A DNA stretch of 64,000 nucleotides from Nannocystis radixulma (GTDB lineage: Bacteria > Myxococcota_A > Polyangia > Nannocystales > Nannocystaceae), in assembly GCF_028369095.1 (NCBI RefSeq), contig NZ_JAQNDN010000024.1:693253-757252 (forward strand), in the 5' to 3' direction. The notes under the pieces were generated by a model. That model was not told where the DNA came from. It searched no databases and was given only the letters and a program-made list of their open reading frames with translations. Both the position numbers and the translations under genes were made by a program. Numbering within the stretch: the first letter of the stretch is position 1; each line of letters begins with the position of its first letter. Of the stretch, positions 889 through 19,710 are shown piece by piece.

Positions 889-3009
889 TCAGGGGTGGGC
901 GACGACGAGGAGGGTGGGGGCGCGCTCGAGGACGCATGCGAGGGCGATCCGCAGGGTCTCGGGATCGAGCGCCGCGAAGCTCTCGTCGAGGAGTGTCAGG
1001 TCGGCGCCCTGGAGCAGCGCGCGGGCGATGAACAGGCGGCTCTGCTCGCCGTGGGACAGCTGCCACCCGGTCTCGCCGACGACCTGCAGCAGGCCGGCAG
1101 GCATGCGCCCCAGGAGCTCGCCGAGCGCCAGCGCCTCGCACACCTCCTGCGCCTCGGCGAGGTCGTCCGCGGTCGGCGGCCAGCGTCGTCCCATCAGCAG
1201 GTTGAACGCCAGGGTGCCCGTCATCACGTGATTGTCGTGGAACTGCGGGACCGCGACGACGCGCTGGCGCCAGCCGGCGAGGCCGAGGGTCCGGCGATCG
1301 AGCGCGTCGAGCAGGACGAGCCCGTGCTGCGGTTCGCGCAGGCCGGCGAGCAGCGACAGCAGCGTCGACTTTCCGCCGCCCGAGCGGCCCTCGAGCAGCA
1401 CGCGTTCGCCGCGGTGGATCTGCAGGTTGCAGTGGTCCAGCGCCGGTTCGCTACGGCCCGGGTAATGGTGCGAGAGCCGATCGACGTCGAGGAGCGGCGC
1501 GGGCTCGCCGTCGGGGTCGAGCTCGCCGCGCAGCACCGGGGACACGCGCTCCTGGCCGGCGGTCGCGTGGAACATCGGCGCGATCGACTCCGACGCGACG
1601 CGGGCGCCGAGCAACTGCGTGAGGCCGCCGACGAGCGACCGCAGGGCGCGATGGGCCAGCAGCACGCCGCCGACGGCGACGACCAGCGCGGCGGCCGGGC
1701 TGGTGTCGGCGACGAAGGCCGGACCGAGGACGAGCAGGCCGAGGAGGAGCCAGCCGCCGGGGAGCAGGCCGGTGAGGACGATCATGGCCCGGTCCAGCCG
1801 CGCGCCGGCATCGAGGTAGCCGTGGAGCGCCTGGTCCTCGCGATCGGAGCGGGCCTCCGGCGCCTGCTGGGCGATCCGCGTGCGATGGCCGACGATCTGC
1901 TCGACGAGGTCGTGCGTCATGTCGAGGCGCAAGCCGGTCCAGCGGCGCCGGCCGCCGAGGTAGGCGCGGCCGAGCCAGACGACCGCGGCGAGGCAAACCA
2001 CCAGCGCCGGGACGAGCGGCCAGGCGTGGCCGCTGGCCGCGAGGACCGCGAACGCGGCGACCAGCTCGATCAGGGCGAACACACCGGCGAGCCCGCCGCT
2101 CAGCGCCAGCGACTCGATCGCGTCCGACTCGAGCACCCAGCCGAGGAACTGTCCCGCGCCGCGGAGGCGGACCTGCTGGCTGTCGAGGGCCAGCGCGCCG
2201 GCGAGGAGCCGCTGCTTGAGGAGCGCGCCGACGTCGATCGCCAGCCGGCCGGACGCGGCGGTGACGAGGGCCCGCAGCGCCGCGGCCGTGGCCAGCAGCA
2301 CCACCCAGGCGATGAGCCAGCCGTGATCGACGGTGCCGGTGAGCGCGCCGCGGCCGACGGCGATCCACGACAGCACGCCGAGGGCGACGACCGCGGCGTA
2401 GCCGGCGAGGACGCCGGCGGCGCGCCGCGGCAGGCGGAAGCGGCGGGCCTGGGCCCGCAGATCGGCGCCGGGCGGCAGGCGCAGCAGCCACAAGCCCTCG
2501 ACGGTGGCGGCGCGCAGCCACTGGGCGAGGATCTCGGCGCGGGCGCGGCCGCCCCGAGGGACGCCGGCCTCGTCGAGCATGCTGTCGAGGCGCGGGAGCA
2601 TCGGCGCCTCGACCTCCGCGCACAGCAGCGCCCGCACGTGCGCCCGCGGGACCGTCCGCTGCTCGTGGTCGGGGCCGAGGAGGATCAGGCCCTGCCTGGT
2701 CGCGCGCACCAGCAGGAGGAAGCTGCGCGGCTCGCCCGGCAGCTGCAGCAGCGCCGGACCGGCGGCGGCGAGGAAGCCGTCGATCTCCGGATAGGTCGTG
2801 ACGACCGGCTCGGCCTCGACGCCGAGCCAGTCGGCCGCGCCCTCGATCCAGCGGGCGAAGTTCAGCGGGTCGGCGTCGGCGAGCCCGGCCGGGGCCTCGC
2901 CGAGCTCGACCTGCCGCGGGGCCAGGCCGCCGACCTGGGCGAGGCACGCGATGGCCTCGGCGATCCGTCGCACGGGCCAGCGCGACGAGGCGGTCGTGTC
3001 ATTCATCAT
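889..3009 (-). CDS. ABC transporter, fused permease and ATPase, with an extra ~190-aa N-terminal domain; NHLM/bacteriocin-export ABC partner type
   Basis: Start MMNDTT at 3009 forms an ATGA overlap with the stop of the upstream gene at 3006-3008. There are multiple TM helices. Walker A is GRSGGGKSTLLSLLAG. The signature/Walker B region is LSHGEQSRLFIARALL...LTLLDESFAALD. The N-terminal extra domain contains GEPRSF...VRATRQG, which resembles a cNMP-binding fold. The first ~190 aa of the 899-aa ORF in the track are an Arg-rich artefact. Confidence 0.75.
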   Translation of the reverse strand: MMNDTTASSRWPVRRIAEAIACLAQVGGLAPRQVELGEAPAGLADADPLNFARWIEGAADWLGVEAEPVVTTYPEIDGFLAAAGPALLQLPGEPRSFLLLVRATRQGLILLGPDHEQRTVPRAHVRALLCAEVEAPMLPRLDSMLDEAGVPRGGRARAEILAQWLRAATVEGLWLLRLPPGADLRAQARRFRLPRRAAGVLAGYAAVVALGVLSWIAVGRGALTGTVDHGWLIAWVVLLATAAALRALVTAASGRLAIDVGALLKQRLLAGALALDSQQVRLRGAGQFLGWVLESDAIESLALSGGLAGVFALIELVAAFAVLAASGHAWPLVPALVVCLAAVVWLGRAYLGGRRRWTGLRLDMTHDLVEQIVGHRTRIAQQAPEARSDREDQALHGYLDAGARLDRAMIVLTGLLPGGWLLLGLLVLGPAFVADTSPAAALVVAVGGVLLAHRALRSLVGGLTQLLGARVASESIAPMFHATAGQERVSPVLRGELDPDGEPAPLLDVDRLSHHYPGRSEPALDHCNLQIHRGERVLLEGRSGGGKSTLLSLLAGLREPQHGLVLLDALDRRTLGLAGWRQRVVAVPQFHDNHVMTGTLAFNLLMGRRWPPTADDLAEAQEVCEALALGELLGRMPAGLLQVVGETGWQLSHGEQSRLFIARALLQGADLTLLDESFAALDPETLRIALACVLERAPTLLVVAHP

Positions 3010-5717
3010 TCGGATGGCCCCTCCTGCGGCCCGCGCACGGCTCCTCCTATCAATCGCAAATGACGCCAGGCGGGGTTCGCCCACAGCTCCTCGCGCAGCT
3101 CGGCCTCGGCGGCCACCAGCGCCGAATAGCGGGAGTCGGGTTGCGCCGCGAGCAGGTCGGGCGGGCCGTCCTCGACCACGCGACCGCCCTCGACCACGAG
3201 CACGCGATCGAAGCCGACGGCCTCGCCGACGTCGTGGGTGACGCACAGCAGGGTCGAGCTGCGCCAGCGCGCGCGCACCCGGGTCAGGAGCCGCTGCCGA
3301 CGCGGGCGGTCGAGGCCGCGGAACGGCTCGTCGAGCAGCACCAGCGCGGGCTGCTCGCGCGCCAGCGCCCGGCCGAGGCGGACCCGCTGGCCCTCGCCGC
3401 CCGACAACAGCGCGCCGCCCTCGCCGAGCGCCGTCTGCAGGCCCTCGGGCAGCTCGGCGAGCAGATCGCGGAGGTCGGCGTCGGCGAAGGCGCGCGCGAG
3501 GGCGGTCGCCTCCATGTCGGCGCGGGCGCCGTAGCGGAGGTTGTCGAGCAAGGAGCGGTTCCACAGGCGGACGCCGGGGTCGACCCACGCCGTCCAGGTC
3601 CGCAGGCGCTCGAGCACCTCACCGCGCAGCGGCTCGTCGTCGACCAGGACCTGCCCCTGCGCCGGGTGATGCCAGCCGAGCAGAAGGCCGAGGAGCGTGC
3701 TCTTGCCGGCCCCCGAGGGCCCGATGATGGCGACGTGCTCGCCGGGCCGCAGCTGCAGGTCGACCTCCGCGAGCAAGGCGTGACCGCCGGCCACCACCCC
3801 GACGCCCGCGAAGCGCAGACCCACCGCCGCGGGCCGCGGGCGGACCTCGCCGGCGCTTGCGGTGCTCGGCACCTCGCGCGCGCCGAGCGGCTCGAGCAGG
3901 CGCAGCGTGACGTTCCTGTGCGCGGGGACCTGCCGCAGCGCGGCCGCGATCTCCTGGCCGAGCACCGGCAGCGACAGCGCCCAGTAGAGGAACAGCAGCG
4001 TGCTGGCCCCGCCGCTGACGCGCTGGACGTGATCGAAGAACAGCCACGCGACCAGGCCGACGCCCGTCAGCGTCTGCATCGCCTCGACCGCCACGACCAC
4101 CGCCAGCAGCGCGCGCGACGTGTGCGCCCACTCGACCAACAGGCCCTCGTGCTCGCGCCGCACCGTCCGCTCGGCGCCGTGGGTGCGGATCGCGGTGAGG
4201 CCGAGCAGCGCGTCGAGGTAGAAGCGGCTCAGCGCCCCGGCGTGGCTGCGCACCCGCATGTCGCGCTCGCCCAGCAGCGGCTGGAACGCCAGCGGCAGCA
4301 GCACCGTCGCCGCGGCGATCGGCAGCGCCAGCCGCACGCAGTCGGGGTCGAGCCACACCAGGCCGGCGGTGACCAGCGCGAGCTCCAGCCCGCCGCGCAG
4401 CAGCTGGGCGGCGACCCCGGGGATCAGGCGCAGGCGGTGGACGCCGTGGCTGCGCTCGGCCATGTCCGAGGTGGGGCGGCTCTGCAGGTAGCGATCCTCG
4501 AGCCGGGGGATCTTGCGCAAGAAGGCGATCCGCAGCCGGGCCTCGAGCGCGCGGCCCATTCGCAGCACCGCCGCGGCCAGCGGGACCTCGACGGCCAGGA
4601 CGATCAGCAGCAGCGCGACGAGCAGCCCCCACGCCGCGGCGCGCTGCTCCGGCAGCCCCAACCACGCGCCGACGTCGAGGGCGCTGCGCAGCGCCACGGC
4701 CTCGAGCAGCACGCACACGGACGCCAGCGCGAGGCCCACGAGCAGCAGGGCCGGCGCGCCGAGGCCGTCGAGCCGGAGCAGCCCGAGCAGCGCGCGGCCC
4801 GGTCGGGCGGGCGGCTCGCGCAGCGCCTCGGCGAGCTCGGGCGAGCGCACGACGGCCCCCGCCGGCAAGCCGTCGTCGGCCGGGGCGCCACGCAGGCCGC
4901 GGAAGCTGACCAGCACCGCGCCACGCAGCATCAGCGCCTCCTCGCCGTCCTCGTCGGCCGGCGCCGGTCGGACCGACCAGAACAGCCGCGGGATCGTCTG
5001 GTGGGCCGTGGGGTGCGCGAGGTCCTCGACCCGCGCGCGGGCGAACACCGCGACGAGGATGCCCGCGGCGGGGCGACCGCGGGCGATCGCCCCGGCGCGG
5101 ACCATGCCGTGGACCATGCGCACCGCGGCGTCGAGCGCCGCCAGGGCGCGCCAGCCCGGCTCGGCGAGAGCTTCCGCGACGAGGGTCGCCCCGAGCTCGC
5201 CGCAGCCGATCTTCACGCAGCGGGCCCGCAAGGCCTCGACGAACTCCGGCGAGCTCGCCCACTCGCGCCAGGCCGCCGCGGGCGTGCGCTGCGAGTGGAG
5301 GTACGCGCTGTCCAGCAGCCGCCGCCGCTGCGTCCAGCGCCGGCCGGTCCCGGGGTCCATGAGCTGCACGAGGTCGCCGTGGCACGACCACACGACCAGG
5401 AAGTGATTGCTGCCACCGGGCTGGCGGACCACCAGCAACGCCGGCAGGGCGCGGGCGGCCGGCTCGAACACGTGGTCGAGCGGCACGATGAGCTGCTGCG
5501 CGTCGATCCCGAGCTCGCCGGCGATCTCCTCGAGCGTGTCGATCGACGTGCCGTCGATCCCGGTCTGGCAGGCCTCGCGCAGGCGACCGTAGCTGACGTG
5601 GATCCCGTGACCTTCGAGGACGCACTTGAGCGCCGCCGGCCCGCAGTCCATCGCCGAGGTCTGGATGACCTCGGGCGCGAACAGGCTGCGGCGGCGCGGG
5701 GCGGAGCGGGTGGGCAT
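3006..5717 (-). CDS. Peptidase C39-domain ABC transporter (bacteriocin/RiPP leader-cleaving exporter)
   Basis: The N-terminus CGPAALKCVLEGHGIHVSYGRLRE is a C39 Cys-protease motif. It is followed by a 6-TM domain and a C-terminal ATPase with Walker A GPSGAGKSTLLGLLLG and LSGGEGQRVRLGRAL...LVLLDEPFRGLD. Confidence 0.85.
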   Translation of the reverse strand: MPTRSAPRRRSLFAPEVIQTSAMDCGPAALKCVLEGHGIHVSYGRLREACQTGIDGTSIDTLEEIAGELGIDAQQLIVPLDHVFEPAARALPALLVVRQPGGSNHFLVVWSCHGDLVQLMDPGTGRRWTQRRRLLDSAYLHSQRTPAAAWREWASSPEFVEALRARCVKIGCGELGATLVAEALAEPGWRALAALDAAVRMVHGMVRAGAIARGRPAAGILVAVFARARVEDLAHPTAHQTIPRLFWSVRPAPADEDGEEALMLRGAVLVSFRGLRGAPADDGLPAGAVVRSPELAEALREPPARPGRALLGLLRLDGLGAPALLLVGLALASVCVLLEAVALRSALDVGAWLGLPEQRAAAWGLLVALLLIVLAVEVPLAAAVLRMGRALEARLRIAFLRKIPRLEDRYLQSRPTSDMAERSHGVHRLRLIPGVAAQLLRGGLELALVTAGLVWLDPDCVRLALPIAAATVLLPLAFQPLLGERDMRVRSHAGALSRFYLDALLGLTAIRTHGAERTVRREHEGLLVEWAHTSRALLAVVVAVEAMQTLTGVGLVAWLFFDHVQRVSGGASTLLFLYWALSLPVLGQEIAAALRQVPAHRNVTLRLLEPLGAREVPSTASAGEVRPRPAAVGLRFAGVGVVAGGHALLAEVDLQLRPGEHVAIIGPSGAGKSTLLGLLLGWHHPAQGQVLVDDEPLRGEVLERLRTWTAWVDPGVRLWNRSLLDNLRYGARADMEATALARAFADADLRDLLAELPEGLQTALGEGGALLSGGEGQRVRLGRALAREQPALVLLDEPFRGLDRPRRQRLLTRVRARWRSSTLLCVTHDVGEAVGFDRVLVVEGGRVVEDGPPDLLAAQPDSRYSALVAAEAELREELWANPAWRHLRLIGGAVRGPQEGPSE

Positions 5718-5724
5718 GGCGACC

Positions 5725-6867
5725 TCAGAACAGCGCCCCCGCGGCGCGCAGCAGGATCTCCGCCGGCGAGAGGGTCTCGACCTCGACCTCGACCGAGCCG
5801 GGCAGGCCGTGCTGCAGCCGCACGCCGGGCAGGGCCGCCGCCTCGACGCTCAGCTCGACGCGCACGTGGCCCTCGCGGGCCTCGTCGGCGACCCGCACCA
5901 CGGTGGCGGCGATCGATCGGTATTGCGTCCACGGGAACCCGTCGAGGCGCAGGCGGGCCGGCTGACCGGCGCGGATCCGGCCGACCGCGGTCGCGGGGGC
6001 GAACTGGCCGGCGATCCGCAGCTCGCCGCCCGGCACGACCGTGGCGATGTCGTCGCCGGCGGCCAGCACCGAGCCGGGCTGCAGCAGCGCGACCTCTCCC
6101 AGGCGCCCGGCTGCCGGCGCCCGCACGCGCCGCTGCTCGATCTGGTGGGCGATCGACTCGATGCTCGCGGTCGTCACCGCGATCTGGCCGTGCAGCTCGG
6201 CGCGCTGGCGCTCGAGCTGCGCCAGGTCCAGCTCGATCTCCGTGGCCGCCGTCGCGCCCTCGGCGTCGATCCGCGCCACCGAGAGCGCGGCGGCGCGGGC
6301 GGCCGTGCGGTGGATCAGGCCGTTGGCCCGCGTGCGCGACAGCTCGGCCTCGGACTCGACCTTCGCGTCGTACAGCCGGGTCGAGCGGTCGGCCTCGGTC
6401 TCGGCGTAGCGGGCCGAGATCCGGGCCGCGCGCGCCTGCACCTCGGCCTCGCGGTTGCGCCGCGACGCCAGCTGGTGCTGGTCGGCCAGGAGCGCCGCGA
6501 CGGCCGCGAGCTGGCCGTCGAGCGCGGCCACCTGGGCCGCGAGGCTGGCGCGCAGCGCCTGCTTCTCGGCCAGCGCGAGGGCCAGCGGCTGGCTGTCGAG
6601 CTCGACGAGCAGCTCGCCTGCCTCGACCTCGGCGCCGAGTCGCAGCCGGGTCTCGACCACGCGACCCGCGACCTCGGCCTCGACGCGAAACGCGACCGCC
6701 TCGACCCGCGCGCTCGTCGTCACCGCGTAGACCTTGACCCGCGCCAGCATCATCCACGACGTCCACGCGACCAGCAGCGCGGCGCCGACGACCAGCCCGA
6801 GGCGCCCCGAGCGGGCGCGCTGGGCCGCGAGGGCGGATAACGACTGCGAGAATGGTTGACCGGGCAT
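5725..6867 (-). CDS. HlyD-family membrane-fusion / secretion adaptor protein
   Basis: It has an N-terminal TM anchor (LGLVVGAALLVAWTSWMMLARV). A long coiled-coil segment is rich in A/L/Q/E. The C-terminal beta-barrel region (PGSVLAAGDDIATVVPGGELRIAGQF) is typical of HlyD/EmrA adaptors. It is 8 nt upstream of the C39-ABC gene. Confidence 0.8.
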   Translation of the reverse strand: MPGQPFSQSLSALAAQRARSGRLGLVVGAALLVAWTSWMMLARVKVYAVTTSARVEAVAFRVEAEVAGRVVETRLRLGAEVEAGELLVELDSQPLALALAEKQALRASLAAQVAALDGQLAAVAALLADQHQLASRRNREAEVQARAARISARYAETEADRSTRLYDAKVESEAELSRTRANGLIHRTAARAAALSVARIDAEGATAATEIELDLAQLERQRAELHGQIAVTTASIESIAHQIEQRRVRAPAAGRLGEVALLQPGSVLAAGDDIATVVPGGELRIAGQFAPATAVGRIRAGQPARLRLDGFPWTQYRSIAATVVRVADEAREGHVRVELSVEAAALPGVRLQHGLPGSVEVEVETLSPAEILLRAAGALF

Positions 6868-7078
6868 GGGCGGGATAATGTGCAGAGGGAATCGTCGGTG
6901 GCTACGCGAGAACGATCGATCGTCGGATTAGCACGAGACCCCCGCGCGACAAGCCGCTGCCATTCAATAAACCACATGTCTTTTGGGGCATGAGGCATGA
7001 TCGCGCGGGGGATGCGGGTGAAGATTCGGCGAGACCGACTGGCGAGGCCGCGGCGGTCCGGATAAGATCGCGGCGAAC

Positions 7079-7516
7079 ATGACCGAGCCGCACGTCCGCC
7101 CCATGCAACTCGACGACGCCGCCGGCGTGGCCAGGCTGTGCCTGCCGCTCGGCGTCACGGTGACCGCCGCCGAGCTCCGGCGGCGGCTGGCGGCGCTGCA
7201 GGGCGCGGCGAGCCAGGGCTTGTTCGTGGCCGAGGCCGGGGAGGGGGTGATCGGGTGGATGCACGTCCAGGAGCGTCCTTCGTTGCTCACGGCGGCCAGC
7301 GCCGAGCTCACTGCCATCGCGGTCGACGAGCGGGCGCGCCAGCGCGGCGTCGGCCGCCGGTTGGTGCAGGCGGCCGAGGCGTGGGCGCGCGCCCGGGATT
7401 GTGCGTACCTGGTCTTGCGGTCAGGTGCCTCGCGGACCGGCGCCCACGGGTTCTACGCGGCGCTGGGCTACGCGCGGACGAGCAGCTCCTACAAGTTCGA
7501 GAAGCCGCTCGGGTGA
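7079..7516 (+). CDS. GNAT family N-acetyltransferase
   Basis: 145 aa. The acetyl-CoA binding motif QRGVGRRLVQAAEAWAR (Q/RxxGxG/A) is present and the size is typical of GNATs. The gene converges on the JmjC gene. Confidence 0.7.
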   Translation: MTEPHVRPMQLDDAAGVARLCLPLGVTVTAAELRRRLAALQGAASQGLFVAEAGEGVIGWMHVQERPSLLTAASAELTAIAVDERARQRGVGRRLVQAAEAWARARDCAYLVLRSGASRTGAHGFYAALGYARTSSSYKFEKPLG

Positions 7517-7520
7517 GCGC

Positions 7521-8762
7521 TCAGGCCGCCCGCACCAGGATGCCCTCTGCGAGCAGCCGCGTGAGCGCGCCCTGGACCTCGGGCCATTCGAAGTCCGGGT
7601 CCCACTGCAGCGCGCTCTCGGCCACGAACTCCTGCTCGGCGGCGAGGCGGGCGACGAACTGCTGCGCCCCTTCGGGCAGCCGCACGTAGCGCTCGTCGCC
7701 GGCGAAGATGTACACCTCCGTCTCGGTCGGGTCGTCCTCCGACGCCGCCAGGCAGTAGCGGATCGGCACCGGCGTGGCGCGGGTCAGGCGCTCGTGCATG
7801 GTGACCGGCGCGGGCGGCGTCTGCGGGCGCCCGCCGTGGTGCTCCGCGACCTCGAGCGACCACTCCTTGTGGAGCTGGCGCAGGTCGAGCTCCGCCAGCT
7901 CGTCGCGCAGCCGCGCGATCGCCTCGGCGAACAGGCCCATGACGTGCTGGGGCACCGCCCCGGAGTGGCGATCGGCGCCGCGCAGCGCCGGGAAGCCCTG
8001 CCGCCACCAGCGCTTGCGTCCGATCTCGAGCTTGAGGACGTCGGAGATCAGCTTGTAGATCGGGCGGTGGCCGAGCGCGATCGAGATGTGATTGGAGTGA
8101 CCCAGCGAGCAGGGCGCGTGCCACACCCCCGGCGGCATGTACAGGAAATCGCCGGGGTGGAGCGTATCCTCGGGAAGGTCCTCCAGCCGCGGGGTCAGGA
8201 TCGCCTGCCCGTCGTAGTGGATCGCCGGCTCGCCCGGGCCCGCGAGGCCCGCCCCGTCGACCGGGGCGTCGACCGCGGGCTCGTGCCCGTAGCGCCAGTG
8301 CTTGGCGCCGGCGATCTGCAGGATGAAGTTGTGGTGCAGGTCCCAGTGCAGCTTGTAGCCGGTGTTGCCGCGCGAGGCGAAGCACAGCGCCTTGTCGACG
8401 TTGGACACCTTGCCGGACGGGAATTGCAGGCTCGCGCGCAGGCCGTCCATCAGCGCCGCGATGTGCGGCTGCGAATCGAGCCGGCCGACCGTCAACAGGC
8501 CCGCCTCGAAGAATTGATGCAGCTGCGCCGGCGGGATCGGCACGACGCGAGACAGCGGCACCCCGTCGTATTCGGTCTGATAGACGGCGGTGGTCTCGGT
8601 GAGCGGGACCGTCCGCCAGCGCTCTTCATCGTAGATCGCGGCGAACTTGTCCGGCGTCCCACGGATGATCAGCGTCTTGCGACCGTAATAATCGTGGAAG
8701 AACTCGTCCGCGCGCATCGGCGCGATCAAGCGTTCGAGGGCTTCGTCGAGGTGCTGTAACAA
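7521..8762 (-). CDS. JmjC / cupin-4 (ribosomal-oxygenase-like) Fe(II)/2OG oxygenase
   Basis: 413 aa. HWDLHH gives an HxD metal dyad in a double-stranded beta-helix context (FILQIAGAKHWRY). A distal His lies in GVWHAPCSLGHSNH. The overall architecture resembles YcfD/ROX-type JmjC proteins. Confidence 0.65.
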   Translation of the reverse strand: MLQHLDEALERLIAPMRADEFFHDYYGRKTLIIRGTPDKFAAIYDEERWRTVPLTETTAVYQTEYDGVPLSRVVPIPPAQLHQFFEAGLLTVGRLDSQPHIAALMDGLRASLQFPSGKVSNVDKALCFASRGNTGYKLHWDLHHNFILQIAGAKHWRYGHEPAVDAPVDGAGLAGPGEPAIHYDGQAILTPRLEDLPEDTLHPGDFLYMPPGVWHAPCSLGHSNHISIALGHRPIYKLISDVLKLEIGRKRWWRQGFPALRGADRHSGAVPQHVMGLFAEAIARLRDELAELDLRQLHKEWSLEVAEHHGGRPQTPPAPVTMHERLTRATPVPIRYCLAASEDDPTETEVYIFAGDERYVRLPEGAQQFVARLAAEQEFVAESALQWDPDFEWPEVQGALTRLLAEGILVRAA

Positions 8763-8832
8763 GGGAAATCCTCTATGGTGAATCCGGACCTTGGACTGTC
8801 GCTGCCCGGCATGACGCCGCGCAAGCGCATAC

Positions 8833-8886
8833 GGAGGCCCACGCGTCCGGACGCGTGGACCTCCGTGCGGCCCGGTCTACGGGCCT
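8833..8886 (-). terminator. Two stem-loops between the peptide gene and the JmjC gene (attenuator or terminator-like)
   Basis: 8833-8864 is a 32-nt near-perfect palindrome, GGAGGCCCACGCGTCC/GGACGCGTGGACCTCC. 8868-8884 has a GGCCCG-gtcta-CGGGCC stem-loop. No U-tract follows, which is common in high-GC genomes. Confidence 0.35.
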
Positions 8887-8903
8887 CGCGCTCGACCTAC
8901 GGC

Positions 8904-9011
8904 TCAGTCGATGCGGGCCGGAGCGGGGGCACCCGCGGCGCCGGCGCGGACGCCCGACTTGAAGGAGAGGTTCTTCTGCGACTTCTTGGTGTCATTCTTG
9001 TTCATGGTCAT
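8904..9011 (-). CDS. Small Lys/Asn-rich peptide, 35 aa (MTMNKNDTKKSQKNLSFKSGVRAGAAGAPAPARID), a candidate modified-peptide precursor
   Basis: The gene is absent from the six-frame track as a separate ORF; it appears only as the C-terminal tail of the artefactual ORF 8904..9965. Two in-frame ATGs lie 6-12 nt downstream of an AAAGGTAGA RBS. GC3 matches the genome. A sigma70-like promoter sits 50 nt upstream. Two hairpins separate the gene from the JmjC gene, which lies 140 nt downstream on the same strand. Confidence 0.5.
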   Translation of the reverse strand: MTMNKNDTKKSQKNLSFKSGVRAGAAGAPAPARID

Positions 9012-9057
9012 TCTACCTTTCACCGGCGCGGACTTTGATGATTGCCCCGGTCCGATG

Positions 9058-9086
9058 TTTATAGCAGCGGCACCGGACCGCGCCAA
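9058..9086 (-). promoter_or_regulatory. Sigma70-like promoter (TTGGCG-N17-TATAAA) for the small peptide gene
   Basis: Read on the minus strand, the sequence is TTGGCGCGGTCCGGTGCCGCTGCTATAAAC with a 17-nt spacer. It lies in a locally AT-richer stretch (9040-9130), ~45 nt upstream of the RBS. Confidence 0.35.
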
Positions 9087-10295
9087 TGATCCCACGATAA
9101 TTTTTTGCGAGTTGCGGCGAACGGGCCGCGATTTGCGTGCACACGACGACGCTTTCGAGGATGCGCCAATCTTGCGATCGCGTGAAACCCGGCCCGGCGT
9201 TCGACGGTGCCATTCATCAATGTTGCGCGCGCTCCCGGCATTGCGCGACGGCCGGCGCTCGCACGCGCACGCGCTGCGCGGCGAGCGACGCGAGCGGCAG
9301 TGACACGCCGACGGCATCGGCTCCGCGCAGGTGTGCAGAGCGATCACGTCCGGCCCGCCGGAGAATTCGCCGCGGCTGTCCGTCGGCGACGGCCGGGCCG
9401 GACGGCCACGCGAGGCTCGGGGGGGTCTCGGCGAGGACGCGGGGATGATCGCGTCACCGAGGAGCGCCGGGCTCCTGCGCGCCCGGGCGCGATCGACGAG
9501 CTCGGGGTCGGTGTCGAGGACGAGCCGCGAGGCCGGTGACACGTCGTCGCAGTCGCGCCAGCAATCACGGTCAAGCGCGCCCGAGCGCCCGCGGCTGACC
9601 CGAGAGACAGGGGGCCGGGCGCCGCGACGAGGCTCCCGCGCGACGGGGGTGTTCACGGGCGGCCGCGACCGCCTCGTCGTCCGCACGCTCCACGACACGA
9701 GGTCGTGGTCGACCGCCGAGCTGCACCGCGTGATCGTGCGCGGCGTCCGGCCACCGGCGAGCCGTCGATCGACCCGGCGCGCGCCCCATGAGCAGGTCTG
9801 GCGAGCGCACGCGCTGCGGCTGGTCGGTCGCGTCGCCGAGGCGCGCGGGCGGTGGGCCGCGCTGCTGGCCCCCTCGTTGCACAGCCGCCGCCTGCTTTCA
9901 CGTCCGAGCGGGCCGGGCCGGCAAGCGACGGTGACCCACATCTCGTCGACATGTTGCGAACCCACGGTTGTTCACGCATCCAATCACGGTCGTTGCCAAC
10001 GTCGAGGCCGACTGCATCGGCGGGCGGCGGGCTCTCGCTCGCCACCGCGAGCTCGAACTCTCCGCGAGCTGACGGACGCGAGGAGGACTTTCTGGCAGAA
10101 GAGAACCGTGGTGAACATGGTGCTCTCGATCCTGTGCATGGCGCGCGGGTCCTCGCGGGCGCGGTTGGAGCCGACCCACCGGGCGACGCAGGCGGTCCTC
10201 CGGTCGATCCGGTGGCGAACGACGGGCAGCCGCTCGGAACCGGAACAGAATCAGGAGACGAGAGATCGACGTAACCCAGGCACAAGGAGACAGCC

Positions 10296-10988
10296 ATGAA
10301 GATCCTGATGGTCCTCACTTCCCACGACAAACTCGGAAACACTGGCCGCAAGACCGGCTTCTGGCTGGAGGAACTGGCCGCGCCTTACTACGTGTTCAAG
10401 GACGCTGGCGCCGAGATCGTCTTGGCTTCGCCGAAGGGTGGCCAGCCGCCGCTCGATCCGAAGAGCAACGAGCCGAACTTCCAGACCGATCTCACTCGTC
10501 GGTTCGAAGCCGATGAGGCCGCCAAGGCCCAACTCGCAAGGACGGCCCGCCTCGACAGCGTCAGGCAGGAAGGCTTCGACACCGTGTTCTACCCTGGCGG
10601 CCACGGCCCGATGTGGGACCTCGCCGAAGATCGGAACTCGATCGAGCTGATCGAAGCGTTCCTCGCAGCCGGCAAGCCGATCGCGCTCGTCTGCCACGCG
10701 CCGGGTGCCCTGCGCAATGTCAAGACCCCGGACGGCAAGCCGCTTGTCGAGGGTAAGAACGTCACCGGCTTCACCAATGGTGAGGAGGAGGACGTCGGCC
10801 TGACGAAGGTGGTGCCCTTCCTCGTCGAGGATGAGCTGATGAGGCTCGGGGCGATCTTCTCCAAGGTCAAGAACTGGGGCGTTCATACGGTCAGCGACGG
10901 CCAGTTGATCACCGGCCAGAACCCGGCCTCCTCGGAGGCGGCCGCGAAGATCCTCATCGATCGCCTCGCCAAGGGCGGCAAGGCATGA
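10296..10988 (+). CDS. DJ-1/PfpI (type-1 glutamine amidotransferase-like, Hsp31/ThiJ class) protein
   Basis: AAGGAGA RBS lies 7 nt upstream of the ATG. The nucleophile elbow is LVCHAPGAL (Cys-His). Size is 230 aa and the layout is the typical DJ-1 alpha/beta fold. Confidence 0.85.
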   Translation: MKILMVLTSHDKLGNTGRKTGFWLEELAAPYYVFKDAGAEIVLASPKGGQPPLDPKSNEPNFQTDLTRRFEADEAAKAQLARTARLDSVRQEGFDTVFYPGGHGPMWDLAEDRNSIELIEAFLAAGKPIALVCHAPGALRNVKTPDGKPLVEGKNVTGFTNGEEEDVGLTKVVPFLVEDELMRLGAIFSKVKNWGVHTVSDGQLITGQNPASSEAAAKILIDRLAKGGKA

Positions 10989-11160
10989 CGGCGAGCGTCG
11001 GGTGACGTGGCTGCTGCTCGACGCGATGCAGCCGATGCTGGCATTCGCCGGCTGGTCGCTCGACGTTGGTGACACCCAGCAGTGGTTCACCTTCAGGCGG
11101 TCCCCGCGTTGACAGCGTGCTCGCCACGAGAGTAAGGTCTCAGGCGGAGAAACCACGCCA

Positions 11161-11490
11161 ATGACTACAGTGAGATTCTTGCCGAAATGGCAGCACGAAC
11201 AGGATGGCGTCCTGCGTCCCGGCGGGACGCTGCGCATCGAGTACGACGTCGATAGGCTCACTTGCTGCCGGTCCGAGCGGTATGGACAAGCTGCGTGGAG
11301 CATCGCTGCGTACGTCCGCTTTCACCCTGATGAACAGGTCCAGTCCGCTGCCGTCTCAACGGGGCCTGCGGAGTTCACGATCCCGGCGAATACCAACAGG
11401 GTCGAGATGTGGTTCCGCAACACCGACCAAACCGGCTGCTCGGCGTGGGACAGCCGCTACGGGCTGAACTACTCGTTCGATGTCGCCTGA
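11161..11490 (+). CDS. Hypothetical protein (109 aa)
   Basis: GGAGAAA RBS is present, with a clean ORF and high GC3. There is no recognisable motif beyond two Cys pairs. Confidence 0.45.
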   Translation: MTTVRFLPKWQHEQDGVLRPGGTLRIEYDVDRLTCCRSERYGQAAWSIAAYVRFHPDEQVQSAAVSTGPAEFTIPANTNRVEMWFRNTDQTGCSAWDSRYGLNYSFDVA

Positions 11491-11825
11491 CTGACCTGAG
11501 GGCCGGGGCAGGACAGCGAGACCTCGACAGGCTCAGGTCGCGCGGCGAGGGCAACGCGCCCAGGACGTCCGCCAGGTGCTCGTCGAGCAGCGGAGCGCGC
11601 CCTCGAGCCCCGTCGTCGGCCTCGCTCCGATTGACGGGGCCTGCGAGCCGACGTGTAGCGCCGACCAGAACACCCCGAAGAGCAGGCTAGCCGGCAGCCG
11701 AGCCGCCTCGGCGGCGAACCGCTCCGGCCACGTCGGACCCTCGCTGCGTCGCGGCGCATGATGCGACGTCACAAAACGCCTGTCGAGAGGAATGGGCCGG
11801 GGCGCGGTCGGGTTCACGCGCCTCG

Positions 11826-12569
11826 ATGCGACGAACCGAGAACAGAGCACAGAATAGAAAATGTCGACCGCAGGGCGTGGGGGCCGGATACCTCGTGTGG
11901 GCGGCCATCGTGGCCGGCGCCTGCGGCGATGAAGGTACCGGCTCGAGTGGCGGCACCGAGGGCACCTCCGGCGTCACCACGAGCACCACGGAACCCGGGA
12001 GTACGAGTTTGGAGAGCACCAACGACGCTGTCGAGCCCACGACCGAGATGGGAGCCAGCTCCGGCGATACCGGCGACGAGGATGCCTGCGCGGCCTTCTG
12101 CGCCGCGGTCGTGGCGTGCGATCCCACTGTCATGGTCGCGGAATGCATCGCGGCGTTCTGCGGTAACGAGGGCGAGACGCCGGCGTGTGTGGCGGCCACC
12201 GATGCCAGCTACATGTGCTTCGCCAGCATGAACTGCGACGACATCCTCGCCGTTCTCAACGAGGAAGATCCGGGGCCGTGCTCCGAAGCCCTGGCGCAGG
12301 AAGTCGAGATCTGCACTGGCCAGAACGCCTGCGACTACGAAGGGAATGGGGCAGTGGACGGCAGCGCCTGCCGGGTCGATTTCGAGTGCATCGGCGAGCC
12401 ACCGCAGGCGATCGTGTGCGACACGGAGACCTGTACTTGCATCGAGGACGGCAGCACGACCGGGGCGTGCGCATCCGAAGGGATCTGCGCGAAATGGACG
12501 GATCTCGACAGCTTCCAGGTGCTGGTGGAACTGGCCGCGACCTGCTGCAGCTTCGGGCCCGCCGCATGA
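11826..12569 (+). CDS. Cys-rich secreted lipoprotein (myxobacterial-type Cys-repeat protein)
   Basis: A signal peptide and lipobox (LVWAAIVAGAC) are present. A Ser/Thr/Gly linker is followed by a domain with ~20 Cys in CxxxC, CTC and CAxxGxC spacing. The start codon is uncertain. Confidence 0.5.
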   Translation: MRRTENRAQNRKCRPQGVGAGYLVWAAIVAGACGDEGTGSSGGTEGTSGVTTSTTEPGSTSLESTNDAVEPTTEMGASSGDTGDEDACAAFCAAVVACDPTVMVAECIAAFCGNEGETPACVAATDASYMCFASMNCDDILAVLNEEDPGPCSEALAQEVEICTGQNACDYEGNGAVDGSACRVDFECIGEPPQAIVCDTETCTCIEDGSTTGACASEGICAKWTDLDSFQVLVELAATCCSFGPAA

Positions 12570-13055
12570 CTCGGCCAGGGCGACGGTACGAACGCGTGGA
12601 ATAACGCGTCCACCGCCATGGTTGATGGCCGCCTGGCCGTCGTGCCAGCGCCCGACCATCGGGCTGTCAGCAGCGGCTCGCTCGCCCGGCCCGCGCGTCG
12701 CGCCCGTCGCCTCGGGCGGGGGCAGGGCATGCCTCTCAAAACATGTCTTTAAGCACATGTTCGAAAGGCCCACTCAACGAGCCCGAGCACGAAACCGAGA
12801 CCCGCCGTAGTGATGCGAGGTCAGTGCAAGCGAGTCTTCCGTCTTGGTGGCCCACGCTTGTCGGCGATCGCGTCGGTGAGCGCAGGCTTGATCGCCTCGC
12901 TCGGCTGCACGACGGAGGTGACGAGCGGGTCGGCGACGGGGAGGGCTGCGTCGCCGAGGAGCTCGACGGTGGTGGCCTGGCCGTCGGCGTATCGGCTCGG
13001 CGTGAATGCGCCCCGAGGGGGTGGTCTACACCACGTTTGACGCCCTGAAGCCCGT

Positions 13056-14663
13056 GTGCCAGGATGCTCTCGCAATGCCCACGGATGCCCAAGCGCGCGC
13101 AGGTCGCCCTGTTCCGAGATGTGCGTGATGGAAGTAGTGATTCGCATCGTCCTCGCCCTCGCGCTCTCCATCCTCGTGATCGCGCTGTTCAGGCTCGGCC
13201 GCCGCATCCCGGCCCCGCGGGAGGATGAGGTGCGTCCCCGGGGATGGGGCTCCATCCTCGGCAATGCGCTGTTTCTCGGCGCCTTGTGGGCCCTGGTCGG
13301 CGTCATCGCGGCGTTCATGGCTGTCGGCGGTAACGTGGTCGACGTCGTCCCACCGGCCGCCGAATTCGTCGAGATACGGGGCGAGCGCGACGACGCAGCA
13401 CCCGAGTGCGGCCCCCCTGGCCCACGCGGGCAGCCATACCTCGTCGAGGTCGTCCACAGCATCGACCAGGGGCCCTGGCTCACGCAGGCCGCCAGCGCCT
13501 TCATGGAGCAGTGCCCGAACGTCCAGCTCCGGCTGACCGCGCGCGACGATTACGACGCTGGCAGCGCCATCCTCCGCGGTGAACTGCGGCCGACGCTGTG
13601 GGCGCCGTCCGAGGAGCTCTCTCTGCGCTACATGGAAATCCGCTGGCGCGAGCAGTCGGACGAATTGCTGTTCCGGATCGACGAGCGGCGCCCCCTCGTC
13701 CGCTCGCCGCTGGTCGTCCTGCTCCACGAGGAGCAGTTCCGAGCGCTGCGGGCGATCCGCGAGGCCGACCGCGAAGGGCTGGGGTTCTGGGTCGACGCGC
13801 TCTGTCCCATGATTCCTCGCGCACCCGAGCTCGACGGTGTGCTGCAGGAGGACATGCTCCCGGGTGACTGGATCGACTGGTACCAGCAGCGGAACCCGCC
13901 GCCGCCGCCGCCGCCCGCCCCGCCGCGCGTGACGAAAAAAGGGAAATCCGCCCCTGTGGTCCTGCCGACGCCCGCCGCTCCGCTGATTCCGACGCCCGAA
14001 GAGCTGCGCTCCTGGGGCCGCGTCAAGCTGGGGTTCCCCGCGCCGAACTCCGCCGGCGGTACTTCGACGCTCGTGCTGATGGCCCGTCAGTACCTCCTCG
14101 CCGACACCGCCGGCGACGTCGCGCTTGCACTCGAGCGCGAGGGCGAGGTCTTGCAGCGGTGGCTGCGGCGCTGCAACGCGGGGCGTGACGACTGGTTCGC
14201 CTCCGCGGTCCTGCTGACCGACCATTTCTTCGACCTCGGCACGACGACCTATGACGGCGTCGTCACCTACGAGAGCGTCGTCTTCGCGATCCTCGCGCGA
14301 CTCAGCGCCGACGAGCTCGGAGAAGTCCGGGTGTACTACCCGTCGCCGACCTTCGTCGCCGAGCACCCCGCGGTGCTGATGTGGCCCGACGACGAGACGC
14401 GCGCCCGTGAACTCGACGCCGCGCGGTACTGGCTGCAATACCTCGAGAGCGAAGCGGTCCAGCAGAGCGCGATCAGGCATGGCCTGCGCCCGGGGCGACT
14501 CGAACGCCCGCTCAGCGCTTTCGACCTCGAGAAGAACCCCTTCCTCGAACAGCGTCGCTTTGGCATCGAGCTCGAGCCGACCCTCGCGGAGCCGCCGCGG
14601 CCAGACGGGCCGGTGCTGCGCAAGCTCCTCGAGCTGTGGCGAGACGCGACCGGCCGGACTTGA
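13056..14663 (+). CDS. Hypothetical membrane-anchored protein with a large extracytoplasmic domain
   Basis: An N-terminal TM helix is present (VVIRIVLALALSILVIALF). An alternative start is the ATG at 13119. The PPPPPPPAPP linker suggests a two-lobed solute-binding-protein-like architecture, but no family can be assigned. Confidence 0.45.
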   Translation: MPGCSRNAHGCPSARRSPCSEMCVMEVVIRIVLALALSILVIALFRLGRRIPAPREDEVRPRGWGSILGNALFLGALWALVGVIAAFMAVGGNVVDVVPPAAEFVEIRGERDDAAPECGPPGPRGQPYLVEVVHSIDQGPWLTQAASAFMEQCPNVQLRLTARDDYDAGSAILRGELRPTLWAPSEELSLRYMEIRWREQSDELLFRIDERRPLVRSPLVVLLHEEQFRALRAIREADREGLGFWVDALCPMIPRAPELDGVLQEDMLPGDWIDWYQQRNPPPPPPPAPPRVTKKGKSAPVVLPTPAAPLIPTPEELRSWGRVKLGFPAPNSAGGTSTLVLMARQYLLADTAGDVALALEREGEVLQRWLRRCNAGRDDWFASAVLLTDHFFDLGTTTYDGVVTYESVVFAILARLSADELGEVRVYYPSPTFVAEHPAVLMWPDDETRARELDAARYWLQYLESEAVQQSAIRHGLRPGRLERPLSAFDLEKNPFLEQRRFGIELEPTLAEPPRPDGPVLRKLLELWRDATGRT

Positions 14664-14670
14664 GCCGAGC

Positions 14671-15684
14671 TCAAGGGGCGGCGGGCGACGCGGAGGCCGG
14701 CGCCGCGGAGGCCGGCGCCGCGGGGGCCGGCGCCGCGGAGGCCGGCGATGCAGGGGCCGTCGTCGAGTCCGTCGCCGAGTCACCACCGACGTTGAACAGC
14801 AGCGAGGAGTTCGAGCCGCCCTTGCCGAGGACCAGCACCTTGGAGTTGGTCGACTTGGCGAGCTCCGACGTCACTTCGAGGTCGCGCCAGCGCAGCACGT
14901 CGGGGGAGAGCTCGCCGATGATCGTGTTGTAGTCGCGGATGCCGCTCGCCTCGGTCCGCTTGCGCTGGGCCTCCGCCTCCTCGCGCTCGAGTTTGTGGCG
15001 ATACTCGAGCATGAGCTGTGCCTGGCGGTACGTCTCGGCGATCGCGGTGAGGACGACCTCCGGCAGCTCGAGGTCGACCAGCTCGACCTCCTGGATCTGC
15101 ACGTACGGCTTCTCGCCCTTGCCGTCGCCGAGTTCGTCGCGGCCGAGCGTGGAGATCCGGCGCAATTCGAGCAGCAGGTCGTTGGCGCTCGAGTAGATTT
15201 CGTACGCCGTCCGATCCCCGAAGGCCCGCCGGACGTGGGCCTGGATGTCCGGCTCGATCGTCCGCGCGAAGTAATCGGGGCCGATGTCGCGGTGGAGATG
15301 CCCGAGCATGTCGCTGTACGGCCGGAACTTCACCGAGACGGCGACCTGCAGGTTGAGCCCCTCGTCGCTGAGGACGTCGAAATTCAACGTCTTCTGCTGC
15401 AGGCGCACCTCGTACAGCGTCAGGTGGTCCCACGGCGGGATGATGTGCAGCCCTTCGCCCCACACCCTGTCCGTCACGGTGCCTCCGGCGAAATAGCGGT
15501 ACATCACGCCCTCGCTTCCCGTCGGGATGGTGATGAACATCCGCGGCCACAGGAAGCCGAGCAACATCAACACCACGACCAGCGCGGTGTAGGTGAGGTA
15601 TTCGACCCGGCCGAGCGTCCTCTCGCTCCACTCGCGGAAGGGCGACCGGTCGTCGGCCTCCGTCGTCTCCCTGGTGTTCGCCAT
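14671..15684 (-). CDS. SPFH / band-7 (HflK/C-prohibitin-like) domain protein
   Basis: An N-terminal TM helix is followed by an SPFH core (GEGLHIIPPWDHLTLYEVRLQQKTLNF...) and a coiled-coil EREEAEAQRKR. The tail is Ala/Pro/Ser-rich. Confidence 0.8.
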   Translation of the reverse strand: MANTRETTEADDRSPFREWSERTLGRVEYLTYTALVVVLMLLGFLWPRMFITIPTGSEGVMYRYFAGGTVTDRVWGEGLHIIPPWDHLTLYEVRLQQKTLNFDVLSDEGLNLQVAVSVKFRPYSDMLGHLHRDIGPDYFARTIEPDIQAHVRRAFGDRTAYEIYSSANDLLLELRRISTLGRDELGDGKGEKPYVQIQEVELVDLELPEVVLTAIAETYRQAQLMLEYRHKLEREEAEAQRKRTEASGIRDYNTIIGELSPDVLRWRDLEVTSELAKSTNSKVLVLGKGGSNSSLLFNVGGDSATDSTTAPASPASAAPAPAAPASAAPASASPAAP

Positions 15685-18996: not shown

Positions 18997-19710
18997 TCAG
19001 ACCGCATGGCTGGGTGGAAACGCTGCGTCGAGGACCGCCTCCCAGTTCACCGGTAGTTGCGGGACGCCGGCGGCGGCGATCCGCGCCGTGAGCTCGTCGC
19101 GGGCGGTGATGCCGAACCTCCGGACGTAGGCCGACAGATACTCCGGGCGGGAGAACAGGAACATCAGATCGGTGAGCTGCATCGGCCGAATCACCAGCAT
19201 CGGGTGCGGTGCTTCGAGCGGGCGATAGTCGGGGTTGTGCAGGCCGGGCTCGAGGCAGCCGGGATAGAATTGGCCGATCATCAGACCCCGGGCGGTGATC
19301 TCGGGCTTCAGCGCCTCTTTCACGGGATCGATGAACCGCGGCCCCCCGTCGTTCGGCAACTCGGGAAATAGCGTCAGGATGGCCCGGAACTCGCGGCCCA
19401 TCCCGGTGGTGGGGAGCTCCGTGGGAAAGCGTGCCACCAGCGCGCGCATCACCGACTCCATGGCGGCGGGGCGGAGCTCGCCCTCGTACACATGAAAGCG
19501 GATCGATCGGAAGCGGTTCAGGCCGGGCTCGACAAAGGGACACACGGACCCCTTGCGACCGATGATCGGGTTCGGCCTGGAGATGAACGTCCTGAGCCAC
19601 GTCCGCACCTCCAGCAGTTGCGCGCGCGCAGCTGCCGGGAGGCCGGCGCTCTGCTCCTCGAGCTGCTCGGCGCATAACAGCCGAGCTTGCGATGGATCTG
19701 TCAATTCCAA
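18997..19710 (-). CDS. Conserved hypothetical protein (237 aa), translationally coupled to the NRPS 3' end
   Basis: Its start overlaps the NRPS stop by 10 nt. Single-Cys motifs GSVCPFVEPGL and GQFYPGC are present. I cannot assign a family by eye. It is a candidate tailoring, precursor-supply or release factor. Confidence 0.5.
   Translation of the reverse strand: MELTDPSQARLLCAEQLEEQSAGLPAAARAQLLEVRTWLRTFISRPNPIIGRKGSVCPFVEPGLNRFRSIRFHVYEGELRPAAMESVMRALVARFPTELPTTGMGREFRAILTLFPELPNDGGPRFIDPVKEALKPEITARGLMIGQFYPGCLEPGLHNPDYRPLEAPHPMLVIRPMQLTDLMFLFSRPEYLSAYVRRFGITARDELTARIAAAGVPQLPVNWEAVLDAAFPPSHAV

Follow-up and report, generated by a model that had tools for sequence, protein, structure and literature searches.

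A candidate RiPP-type cassette of Nannocystis radixulma combining a JmjC oxygenase, an unannotated small peptide and a C39-peptidase exporter

Introduction

Peptidase-containing ATP-binding cassette (ABC) transporters (PCAT/AMS exporters such as ComA, PCAT1, LagD and LahT) have a C39 peptidase with catalytic Gln, Cys, His and Asp residues and substrates with a pair of small residues (G-G or A-G) and a hydrophobic residue at −4, and in Gram-negative systems they are accompanied by a HlyD-type adaptor. In the NHLM/NHLP export trio an adaptor is combined with two ABC proteins, one of which has a C39 domain. As regards modification, JmjC enzymes are known to hydroxylate the precursors of RiPPs (peptides synthesized ribosomally and modified post-translationally), namely CzlI in the case of curacozole (PMC11575548) and BipG/BpmG/PbsQ in the case of the biphenomycins (PMC12707348, PMC12257519). 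Here we describe a locus in a stretch of 64,000 nt of Nannocystis radixulma DNA (contig NZ_JAQNDN010000024.1, positions 693,253 to 757,252, referred to below as the window) in which a small peptide and a JmjC oxygenase are encoded together with a GNAT acetyltransferase, a HlyD-family adaptor, a C39-containing ABC half-transporter (ABC1) and a second half-transporter (ABC2). We consider it probable that the peptide is the substrate of the JmjC protein and the cargo of the PCAT, and that the locus is a RiPP-type cassette with the JmjC protein as its main modifying enzyme.

The cassette resembles the PCAT/AMS systems in the residues kept in the C39 domain of ABC1, in the small-residue pair and hydrophobic −4 position of the putative substrate and in its HlyD-type adaptor, but differs in having two different half-transporters, one predicted to carry a live and the other a dead C39-like domain, and in a leader that has an invariant Arg at −3 in place of E-L-x-x-I-x-G-G and a core of only 8–13 residues. 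It shares its three export components with the NHLM/NHLP trio, and TIGR03796 is the top NCBIfam model for ABC1; however, all three proteins fall far below the family cut-offs, the precursor is neither of the NHLP nor of the Nif11 type, and the N-terminal domain of the NHLM ABC2 protein is annotated differently. Like CzlI, the JmjC protein is of the Fe(II)/2-oxoglutarate (2OG) JmjC type, and YxbC, the top structural neighbour of CzlI (PMC11575548), is also its own closest solved relative. CzlI and BipG/BpmG/PbsQ are, however, accessory tailoring enzymes of clusters built around YcaO/cyclodehydratase enzymes or around a multinuclear non-haem iron-dependent oxidative enzyme (MNIO) and a B12-dependent radical SAM enzyme, whereas the cassette JmjC protein is the only candidate core-modifying oxygenase and is accompanied by a PCAT and a GNAT. 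Folds resembling the RiPP recognition element (RRE) and fused to PF08007 have been noted (PMC12710340); unlike PqqD-like RREs, the C-terminal domain of the JmjC protein has no sequence-level match to PqqD-type models and is evolutionarily the winged helix of the ribosomal oxygenases (ROX). Asp beta-hydroxylases of other folds also occur in RiPP pathways (PMC12186529). A sequence-only reading of this DNA had held that the combination is not a described RiPP class. Full-text literature searches indeed turned up neither a JmjC + GNAT + PCAT cassette nor the peptide motifs, and on YxbC only the curacozole paper, but JmjC enzymes as such have precedent in RiPPs in CzlI and BipG. We regard the cassette as a probable RiPP-type system that brings familiar parts together in a way not described before and whose putative precursor lacks annotation.

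Results and discussion

Six genes recur together in unrelated surroundings

As most open reading frames (ORFs) are spurious in DNA of 72% G+C, the value for the window, genes between positions 889 and 9011 were picked by codon-position G+C (GC3 frame analysis), supported by translations and hidden Markov model scans. Codon-position G+C leaves exactly six genes in this interval (Table 1), and the six features named from the sequence alone were all found where they had been placed. The peptide, JmjC, GNAT, HlyD, C39-ABC and ABC2 genes occur together in nine independent loci, the window and eight others (L001=L007, L002=L003, L004=L005, L006, L015, L016, L017 and L018); the count covers those contigs that are long enough to judge, all of which carry the full set. 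The sources, where named, are Polyangia or ‘delta proteobacterium’ metagenome-assembled genomes (MAGs). The flanks differ in every locus (for example polyketide synthase, GH3/Rieske, xanthine-dehydrogenase-like, DnaB and TsiV genes), and two gene orders are found, with the GNAT gene either after the JmjC gene on the opposite strand or last in the operon (L004 and L006). Across the loci the proteins diverge in parallel, identities being 54–61% for JmjC, 47–51% for ABC1, 45–49% for ABC2, 41–46% for the HlyD adaptor, which is present in every cassette, and 40–50% for the GNAT. Co-occurrence of six genes with unrelated flanks is far beyond chance, and the peptide, the JmjC protein, the GNAT and the exporter trio are one conserved unit, which upholds the proposal of a dedicated peptide-modification and export locus.

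The small ORF encodes a peptide under selection

The small ORF, MTMNKNDTKKSQKNLSFKSGVRAGAAGAPAPARID (35 aa), has a coding-like GC3 of 0.89 and is matched by no model in Pfam or NCBIfam. In a collection of 15 billion proteins the 35-residue form is absent and the 33-residue form present (P0040), and the ORF is effectively unannotated in the N. radixulma genome; as its homologues begin with MN, the 33-residue start is at least as likely as the longer one. In each of the eight other loci a homologous small ORF is found immediately upstream of the JmjC gene. The nine locus peptides together with 10 more from the protein collection make 19 distinct variants built to a common plan: an N-terminus that varies in length and is rich in K/E/N/Q, the motif L-x-(I/V/F)-(K/R)-(T/S)-G-(V/I/L)-R-(A/G)-G and 8–13 further residues that end with (M/R/H)-I-D-stop in 19/19. 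Examples of the tails are LAVRLMID, LAVTLMID, PAVVLMID, VGTRLRID, GGVQTLRID and VASSVRLHID. In the window peptide a hydrophilic N-terminus precedes the conserved L-x-F-K-S-G-V-R-A-G, and the proposed cut divides the peptide into MTMNKNDTKKSQKNLSFKSGVRAG and AAGAPAPARID, an 11-residue tail with the invariant I-D end. When the nine locus peptides are aligned, L, G, R, G, I and D do not vary; the first motif Gly is replaced in two database variants, and the motif Arg and final Gly are invariant in 19/19. The final G-(V/I)-R-(A/G)-G (R-A-G in the window) constitutes a candidate double-glycine-type site with an invariant Gly at −1, Ala or Gly at −2 and Val, Ile or Leu at −4 in most variants (Thr in two), and the statement that no double-glycine precursor lies beside the exporter therefore does not hold, the 35-residue peptide itself having such a candidate site. 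Between L001 and L017 there are seven synonymous changes and one non-synonymous change over the final 19 codons, and the other pairs among the five closest loci show 4–7 synonymous and 1–5 non-synonymous changes; synonymous changes outnumbering non-synonymous ones among closer loci, the peptide sequence is under selection. Judged by this pattern the peptide is a real, selected gene, and the ORF is conserved in relatives, with 19 variants and selection at the protein level.

The peptide and JmjC genes point the same way, and the 141 nt between them contain a 16-bp hairpin. Its stem, of 15 Watson–Crick pairs and one G-U pair with the loop CCGG, lies 38 nt past the peptide stop codon, and the RNA fold of 8763–8910(−) has an energy of −76.3 kcal/mol (z = −3.55), with 0/200 shuffles folding as well. 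A long, nearly perfect hairpin is found at the same position in 9/9 loci (eight besides the window), with unrelated sequences; in L006 and L018 a T-rich run comes after it. A simple scan of 6800–10300 for sigma-70-type promoters and terminators found nothing, the window hairpin having been missed because no T-run is present there, and an Rfam scan of 8700–10400 gave no match. A strong hairpin directly past the ORF in every locus, with an ORF that is unannotated in this genome, is what might be expected if the ORF were a regulatory upstream ORF or attenuator of the JmjC operon, or were not translated at all. We regard this as very unlikely, given the selection on amino acids (seven synonymous changes to one in L001/L017), the invariant C-terminal I-D, the fit between the Gly-Gly-type site and the co-encoded intact C39 domain, and the hairpins themselves, which are unrelated in sequence, lie past the stop codon and do not overlap the ORF. 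A hairpin after the precursor gene is, in RiPP operons, an arrangement that yields an excess of precursor transcript, and for the precursor proposed here the hairpin is likely a partial terminator or mRNA stabilizer that determines how much precursor transcript there is relative to enzyme transcript.

The I-D end is found only in JmjC-linked peptides, and orphans that bear the motif have other tails (P0041–43 and P0044). P0044, MNNHKKDNPQQPKPQTSPPVRPDRPLVIRTGVRAGPYEFL, is an orphan ORF of 40 residues (L019:10001–10123; Nannocystis sp. SCPEA4, JAPNJX010000002.1) that has the motif L-V-I-R-T-G-V-R-A-G as in the cassette peptides and a different five-residue tail, PYEFL; no oxygenase or exporter is nearby, its neighbours being a sigma-70-like gene and a Ser/Thr kinase gene. 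It may be a trans substrate of the cassette exporter, although the match is weak (E = 6.5) and could be due to chance. In L020 the peptide MKKLKQVTKPKKTDNDKRLKLMVIRTGVRAGARAGKRT (165–281) has the same motif without the I-D end and is followed by a gene for a 506-residue protein (376–1896) without a precomputed Pfam match; this peptide may represent a second family using this type of leader.

That P0044 has the motif far from any enzyme suggests that the motif is primarily an export signal, and a C39 transporter and a HlyD protein suffice alone for classical double-glycine peptides. The cassette peptide could then be an unmodified double-glycine peptide (a class-II-like bacteriocin or a signal) that is only cut and exported, with the JmjC protein and GNAT acting on a cellular protein, in immunity or on a regulator. 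This appears unlikely to us: the JmjC and GNAT genes are never missing where the contigs reach, the JmjC gene always adjoins the peptide gene, the enzyme has an RRE-like domain, and peptides with other tails are not those linked to the JmjC protein.

The JmjC protein belongs to a rare subfamily with ROX architecture

In Pfam the JmjC protein matches PF08007 (57.9 bits, cut-off 22), and no model of NCBIfam (June 2026 release) matches it. The iron triad, H139-x-D141...H215, is invariant in 13 sequences, as is K154, which corresponds to the 2OG ligand of NO66, a Lys 13 residues past the triad Asp. A barrel (approximately aa 1–232) is followed by a helical region (approximately aa 235–306) and a C-terminal winged-helix/RRE-like domain (approximately aa 320–413), which is the three-domain arrangement of ROX enzymes, with a winged helix after the JmjC and helical domains. 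Among solved sequences YxbC of Bacillus subtilis (1VRB/7ZCC, E = 8e-27) is the closest, and MINA53 and NO66 come next (E = 1e-9 to 1e-8). The C-terminal domain was modelled with a pLDDT of 92, and its best structural matches are ROX winged helices, after which come RREs solved with leader peptides (PbtF 7.2, PqqD 6.9, ThcOx and McbB 6.4, TbiB1 6.2, MccB 6.1, MibB 6.0, NisB 5.3, LynD 5.2 and TglI 5.0). On the predicted structure the domain has an RRE-like fold, with no match to PqqD-type sequence models, and it is predicted to be RRE-like and putatively peptide-binding.

JGI labels several homologues ‘ribosomal protein L16 Arg81 hydroxylase’ and the three-domain ROX architecture is shared with that enzyme, so that the gene might be thought to encode a housekeeping L16 arginine hydroxylase (YcfD/RoxA) lying beside the exporter by chance. 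We find this scarcely credible. YcfD chains match only with E = 8e-4 to 1e-3 over about 55 residues, as against 8e-27 for YxbC, and the gene is always linked to the cassette. A word-indexed collection has only 14 close relatives (13 at 54–70% identity), and an exhaustive profile search of 1.84 billion cluster representatives gave only three 50%-identity clusters above 400 bits, below which there is a gap to 263 bits and then a long tail (134 representatives at E < 1e-30); with only three such clusters the subfamily is rare and the JmjC gene is not a widespread housekeeping gene. Metagenome contigs scanned with the JmjC profile yielded two distant, uninformative fragments only. Orthology with YcfD/RoxA was therefore rejected on the grounds of the weak YcfD match, the tiny subfamily and the constant linkage, and the assumption that the protein is not a YcfD orthologue, on which the cassette reading depended, stands.

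The next-nearest relative, P0045 (440 bits), is encoded in L021 (GCA_039932755.1, JBDTPJ010000060.1). Downstream of its gene, after an AGGAGG site, an ORF (L021:11384–11665) that runs off the contig end has a K-rich start, MAKTTLKKLKVSGAGAASGS, and then A-I-R-G-V-(S/A) units, at least 13 of them in tandem. At the DNA level the repeats agree at only 68–82%, with synonymous variation, and the repeat is therefore kept at the protein level; the peptide may be a substrate modified at several sites. When relatives of the repeat peptide were sought, one unconvincing match was all that came up. More distant relatives (L008–L012, 24–27% identity) stand in other contexts, some of them RiPP-like, without this peptide and exporter. 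In an Eremiobacterota MAG (L009:8071–15427, OY970223.1) four paralogous JmjC genes of about 390–410 codons (8071–9237, 9971–11197, 12190–13422 and 14207–15427; 27% identity to the window enzyme) lie within about 7 kb. In a Riflebacteria MAG (L008:5129–10556) and a Flavobacteriales MAG (L011:7690–10759), JmjC relatives of 25–27% identity adjoin asparagine-synthase-like genes and, in L008, also a small PqqD-like ORF and a radical-SAM-like gene; these neighbour labels, which come from N-terminal sequence motifs only, suggest that L008 and L011 are other RiPP-like contexts of the JmjC superfamily.

The exporter has an intact C39 domain and a degenerate C39-like one

In ABC1, Peptidase_C39 (PF03412) matches residues 17–134 with 68.8 bits (cut-off 22), ABC_tran reaches its cut-off with 86 bits and ABC_membrane scores 21.1 bits against a cut-off of 28; full-length exporter models of NCBIfam align to residues 325–868. 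Alignment of the C39 domain to Streptococcus pneumoniae ComA (8HF4), PCAT1 (4RY2) and LahT150 (6MPZ) showed that the catalytic set is kept, with Gln19, Cys25 (in MDCGPAAL), a His within SNHFLVV and an Asp within MDPG, and the domain should be an active double-glycine peptidase. An intact C39 domain implies a substrate of the Gly-Gly type, and within the cassette no candidate for such a site exists other than the (A/G)-G of the peptide. ABC2 has an ABC_tran domain (78.5 bits), and the extra N-terminal domain that had been noted in it is real, although of a more specific kind: the first ~130 residues align in register with the ABC1 C39 domain (BLASTP, 25% identity, E = 0.007; hhalign, probability 83%, E = 8.8e-6, 102 columns), with Arg at the position of the Cys and Ser at that of the His. 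A Pfam scan of the N-terminal 200 residues of ABC2 (three homologues) found no domain. From these alignments the region is a degenerate, catalytically dead C39-like domain. As the stop and start codons of the two genes overlap and the genes strictly co-occur, ABC2 is probably the heterodimer partner of ABC1 and translationally coupled to it.

The HlyD adaptor reaches no NCBIfam cut-off; its best matches there are EmrA (75 bits), RND_mfp and type_I_hlyD. Assignment of the trio to the NHLM export family, as had been proposed, did not hold, the scores being 190.5 against 853.3 for ABC1 (TIGR03796), 110.4 against 709.4 for ABC2 (TIGR03797) and 24.5 against 156.2 for HlyD (TIGR03794), with CydC and CydD models outscoring NHLM for ABC2 and EmrA doing so for HlyD. 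Next to the exporter no NHLP or Nif11-type precursor was found, the only small conserved ORF being the 35-residue peptide. In L001 the HlyD gene (11797–12976) matches the window protein by tblastn in two pieces and was called as 199 aa only; in another contig, which shares the neighbouring proteins, the HlyD gene encodes 377 aa, and the short form is probably an assembly frameshift rather than a real truncation.

The acetyltransferase and the free N-terminus of the core

The GNAT protein matches Acetyltransf_1 (PF00583) with 59.9 bits (cut-off 20.7), and its best NCBIfam matches are RimI (38.3 against 86.4) and AAC(6') models, all below cut-off; it was rejected as an equivalog of RimI and of HaaN (18.7 against 250). 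A GNAT gene is present in 8/8 loci whose contig covers the position (the window, L001, L002, L004, L006, L015, L016 and L018), and in L017 by gene call only. It lies between the peptide–JmjC pair and the exporter, as had been read from the sequence, but on the strand opposite to the rest of the cassette, where it converges with the JmjC gene and diverges from the exporter genes. As the sole amine of cores such as LAVTLMID is the new N-terminus, N-alpha-acetylation after cleavage is the simplest role for the enzyme, which would acetylate that terminus as maturation or self-protection.

The GNAT also bears on a different use of the product. MccE/RimL acetylates processed microcin C, and by analogy the cassette might make a Trojan-horse antimetabolite, in which the JmjC protein converts the C-terminal Asp (to beta-hydroxy-Asp, for example), competitors take up and degrade the peptide and release a toxic residue, and the GNAT confers immunity. 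The C-terminal Asp is invariant in 19/19 variants, the nearest relatives of the GNAT are RimI and AAC(6')-type amine acetyltransferases, the GNAT gene often has its own orientation, as resistance genes do, and Fe/2OG enzymes are known to beta-hydroxylate Asp in RiPPs (PMC12186529). Nevertheless, the cassette encodes neither an adenylating enzyme nor a PEARL or C-terminal protease, the repeat peptide that accompanies the relative in L021 lacks Asp, and toxicity of the product is pure conjecture; we give this scheme only a small chance.

A possible pathway and the modified residue

In the pathway that we favour, a JmjC-modified peptide exported by the PCAT, the peptide (33/35 aa) would serve as substrate with its N-terminal two thirds as leader. 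The alternating hydrophobic and basic stretch L-x-(I/V/F)-(K/R)-(T/S)-G-(V/I)-R-(A/G)-G would dock as a beta-strand on the winged-helix/RRE-like domain of the JmjC protein; an L-x-I-x-T-x-I alternation would fit strand docking on an RRE sheet. The Fe(II)/2OG JmjC domain would then oxidize one side chain, most likely by hydroxylation (+16 Da), either the motif Arg of (V/I)-R-(A/G)-G or a residue of the C-terminal Ile-Asp, and the C39 domain of ABC1 would cut after (A/G)-G. ABC1 and ABC2 (one live and one dead C39 domain), together with the HlyD adaptor and an unlinked outer-membrane channel, would export the product of 8–13 residues, whose only free amine, the new N-terminus, would be acetylated by the GNAT. 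The hairpin after the precursor gene would hold precursor mRNA above enzyme mRNA.

Both candidate sites have points in their favour. For the C-terminal I-D there is classical leader/core logic and the restriction of this end to JmjC-linked peptides; for the motif Arg there is the neighbour ORF of P0045, with its tandem A-I-R-G-V-(S/A) units. ROX substrates have the target residue in Gly-rich loops (A-V-R81-M-G in Escherichia coli L16). A more far-reaching version is possible, if rather doubtful, in which the JmjC protein is an Arg hydroxylase acting on the (V/I)-R-(A/G)-G that is read by the C39 domain, so that oxidation licenses or times cleavage and export; the lineage would also decorate the A-I-R-G-V-S repeats of L021 and could act in trans on P0044. 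The cassettes would then represent a RiPP family defined by a ROX-type JmjC protein whose winged helix was recruited as an RRE, making very short, N-acetylated, Ile-Asp-ended signalling or antibiotic peptides in myxobacteria.

Several observations weigh against the pathway set out above, or against parts of it. We infer both the +16 Da change and its site in the peptide. The motif Arg would be P3 of the cut and would be discarded with the leader; cores such as LAVTLMID and PAVVLMID have no Arg, the only invariant core residues being Ile and Asp, and the L021 repeat has no Asp, Ile being common to both candidates. With Arg-less cores and an Asp-less repeat, no single site fits all of the data. 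The AF2 model of the whole JmjC protein has a pLDDT of 69, with 38–72 in the catalytic barrel, and its active site is unreadable. For distant JmjC relatives (about 250 bits; P0046 and P0047 in L022) no clear precursor was found. As to export, none of the exporter genes reaches a curated NCBIfam cut-off, the leader departs from the canonical L-S-x-x-E-L-x-x-I-x-G-G consensus and one variant has Pro at +1 of the proposed cut. The role of the GNAT is the least constrained, because its gene is usually on the opposite strand.

If the pairing of peptide and enzyme holds, the cassettes form a compact RiPP family of six genes with a product of 8–13 residues and a JmjC oxygenase of the ROX branch as the class-defining enzyme. 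The winged helix, which is poorly understood in ribosomal oxygenases, would serve to recognize leader peptides; this would tie the protein hydroxylases of eukaryotes and bacteria to natural-product biosynthesis, and one enzyme with a 35-residue substrate would offer a tractable model of JmjC substrate recognition. A heterodimeric PCAT with live and dead C39 domains would join the known exporters, and there would be a new small secreted peptide from the myxobacteria, which are prized for bioactive compounds and cell–cell signalling. As the precursor gene was missed by annotation here, the family is invisible to standard genome mining.

Layout of the locus and neighbouring genes

The coordinates of the cassette features are collected in Table 1. 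WP_272008892.1 and WP_272008888.1 of N. radixulma have the same sequences as the GNAT and ABC1 proteins, respectively, and the JmjC protein is 98% identical to a homologue from Nannocystis sp. SCPEA4.

Table 1. Features of the six-gene cassette, with positions in the window
Feature	Position	Strand	Details
ABC2 half-transporter	889..3009	−	706 aa; ATG start at 3009 overlaps ABC1 stop (ATGA)
C39-ABC1	3006..5717	−	903 aa; Peptidase_C39 68.8 bits
HlyD-family periplasmic adaptor (membrane fusion protein)	5725..6867	−	380 aa; PF13437 HlyD_3 54 bits
GNAT N-acetyltransferase	7079..7516	+	145 aa; PF00583 59.9 bits
JmjC_2 (cupin-4) protein	7521..8762	−	413 aa; TTG start after AGAGGA; PF08007 57.9 bits
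Stem-loop, 16 bp	8831..8866	−	between peptide stop and JmjC gene; RNA fold
Precursor peptide gene (putative)	8904..9011	−	35 aa, or 33 aa from second ATG at 9005; GC3 0.89

The window flanks of the cassette (DJ-1/PfpI, SBP, Band_7, DUF697, ABC transporter, DUF6875 and non-ribosomal peptide synthetase (NRPS) genes) are unrelated to it. A giant NRPS gene of 5752 codons lies at 19701–36959 (−), between a DUF6875 gene (18997–19710) and a multicopper oxidase gene (37498–39441), and the first 4900 residues of its product contain five condensation, five AMP-binding and four PP-binding domains. Membership of the cassette in this neighbouring NRPS cluster was considered and rejected, since the flanks are unrelated and the cassette recurs elsewhere without an NRPS. 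Upstream of the peptide gene, a region of about 1.25 kb (9012–10275) has no convincing gene by codon-position G+C, with one frame over 9300–9750 reaching a GC3 of about 0.88, and may be a decayed gene or a regulatory region.

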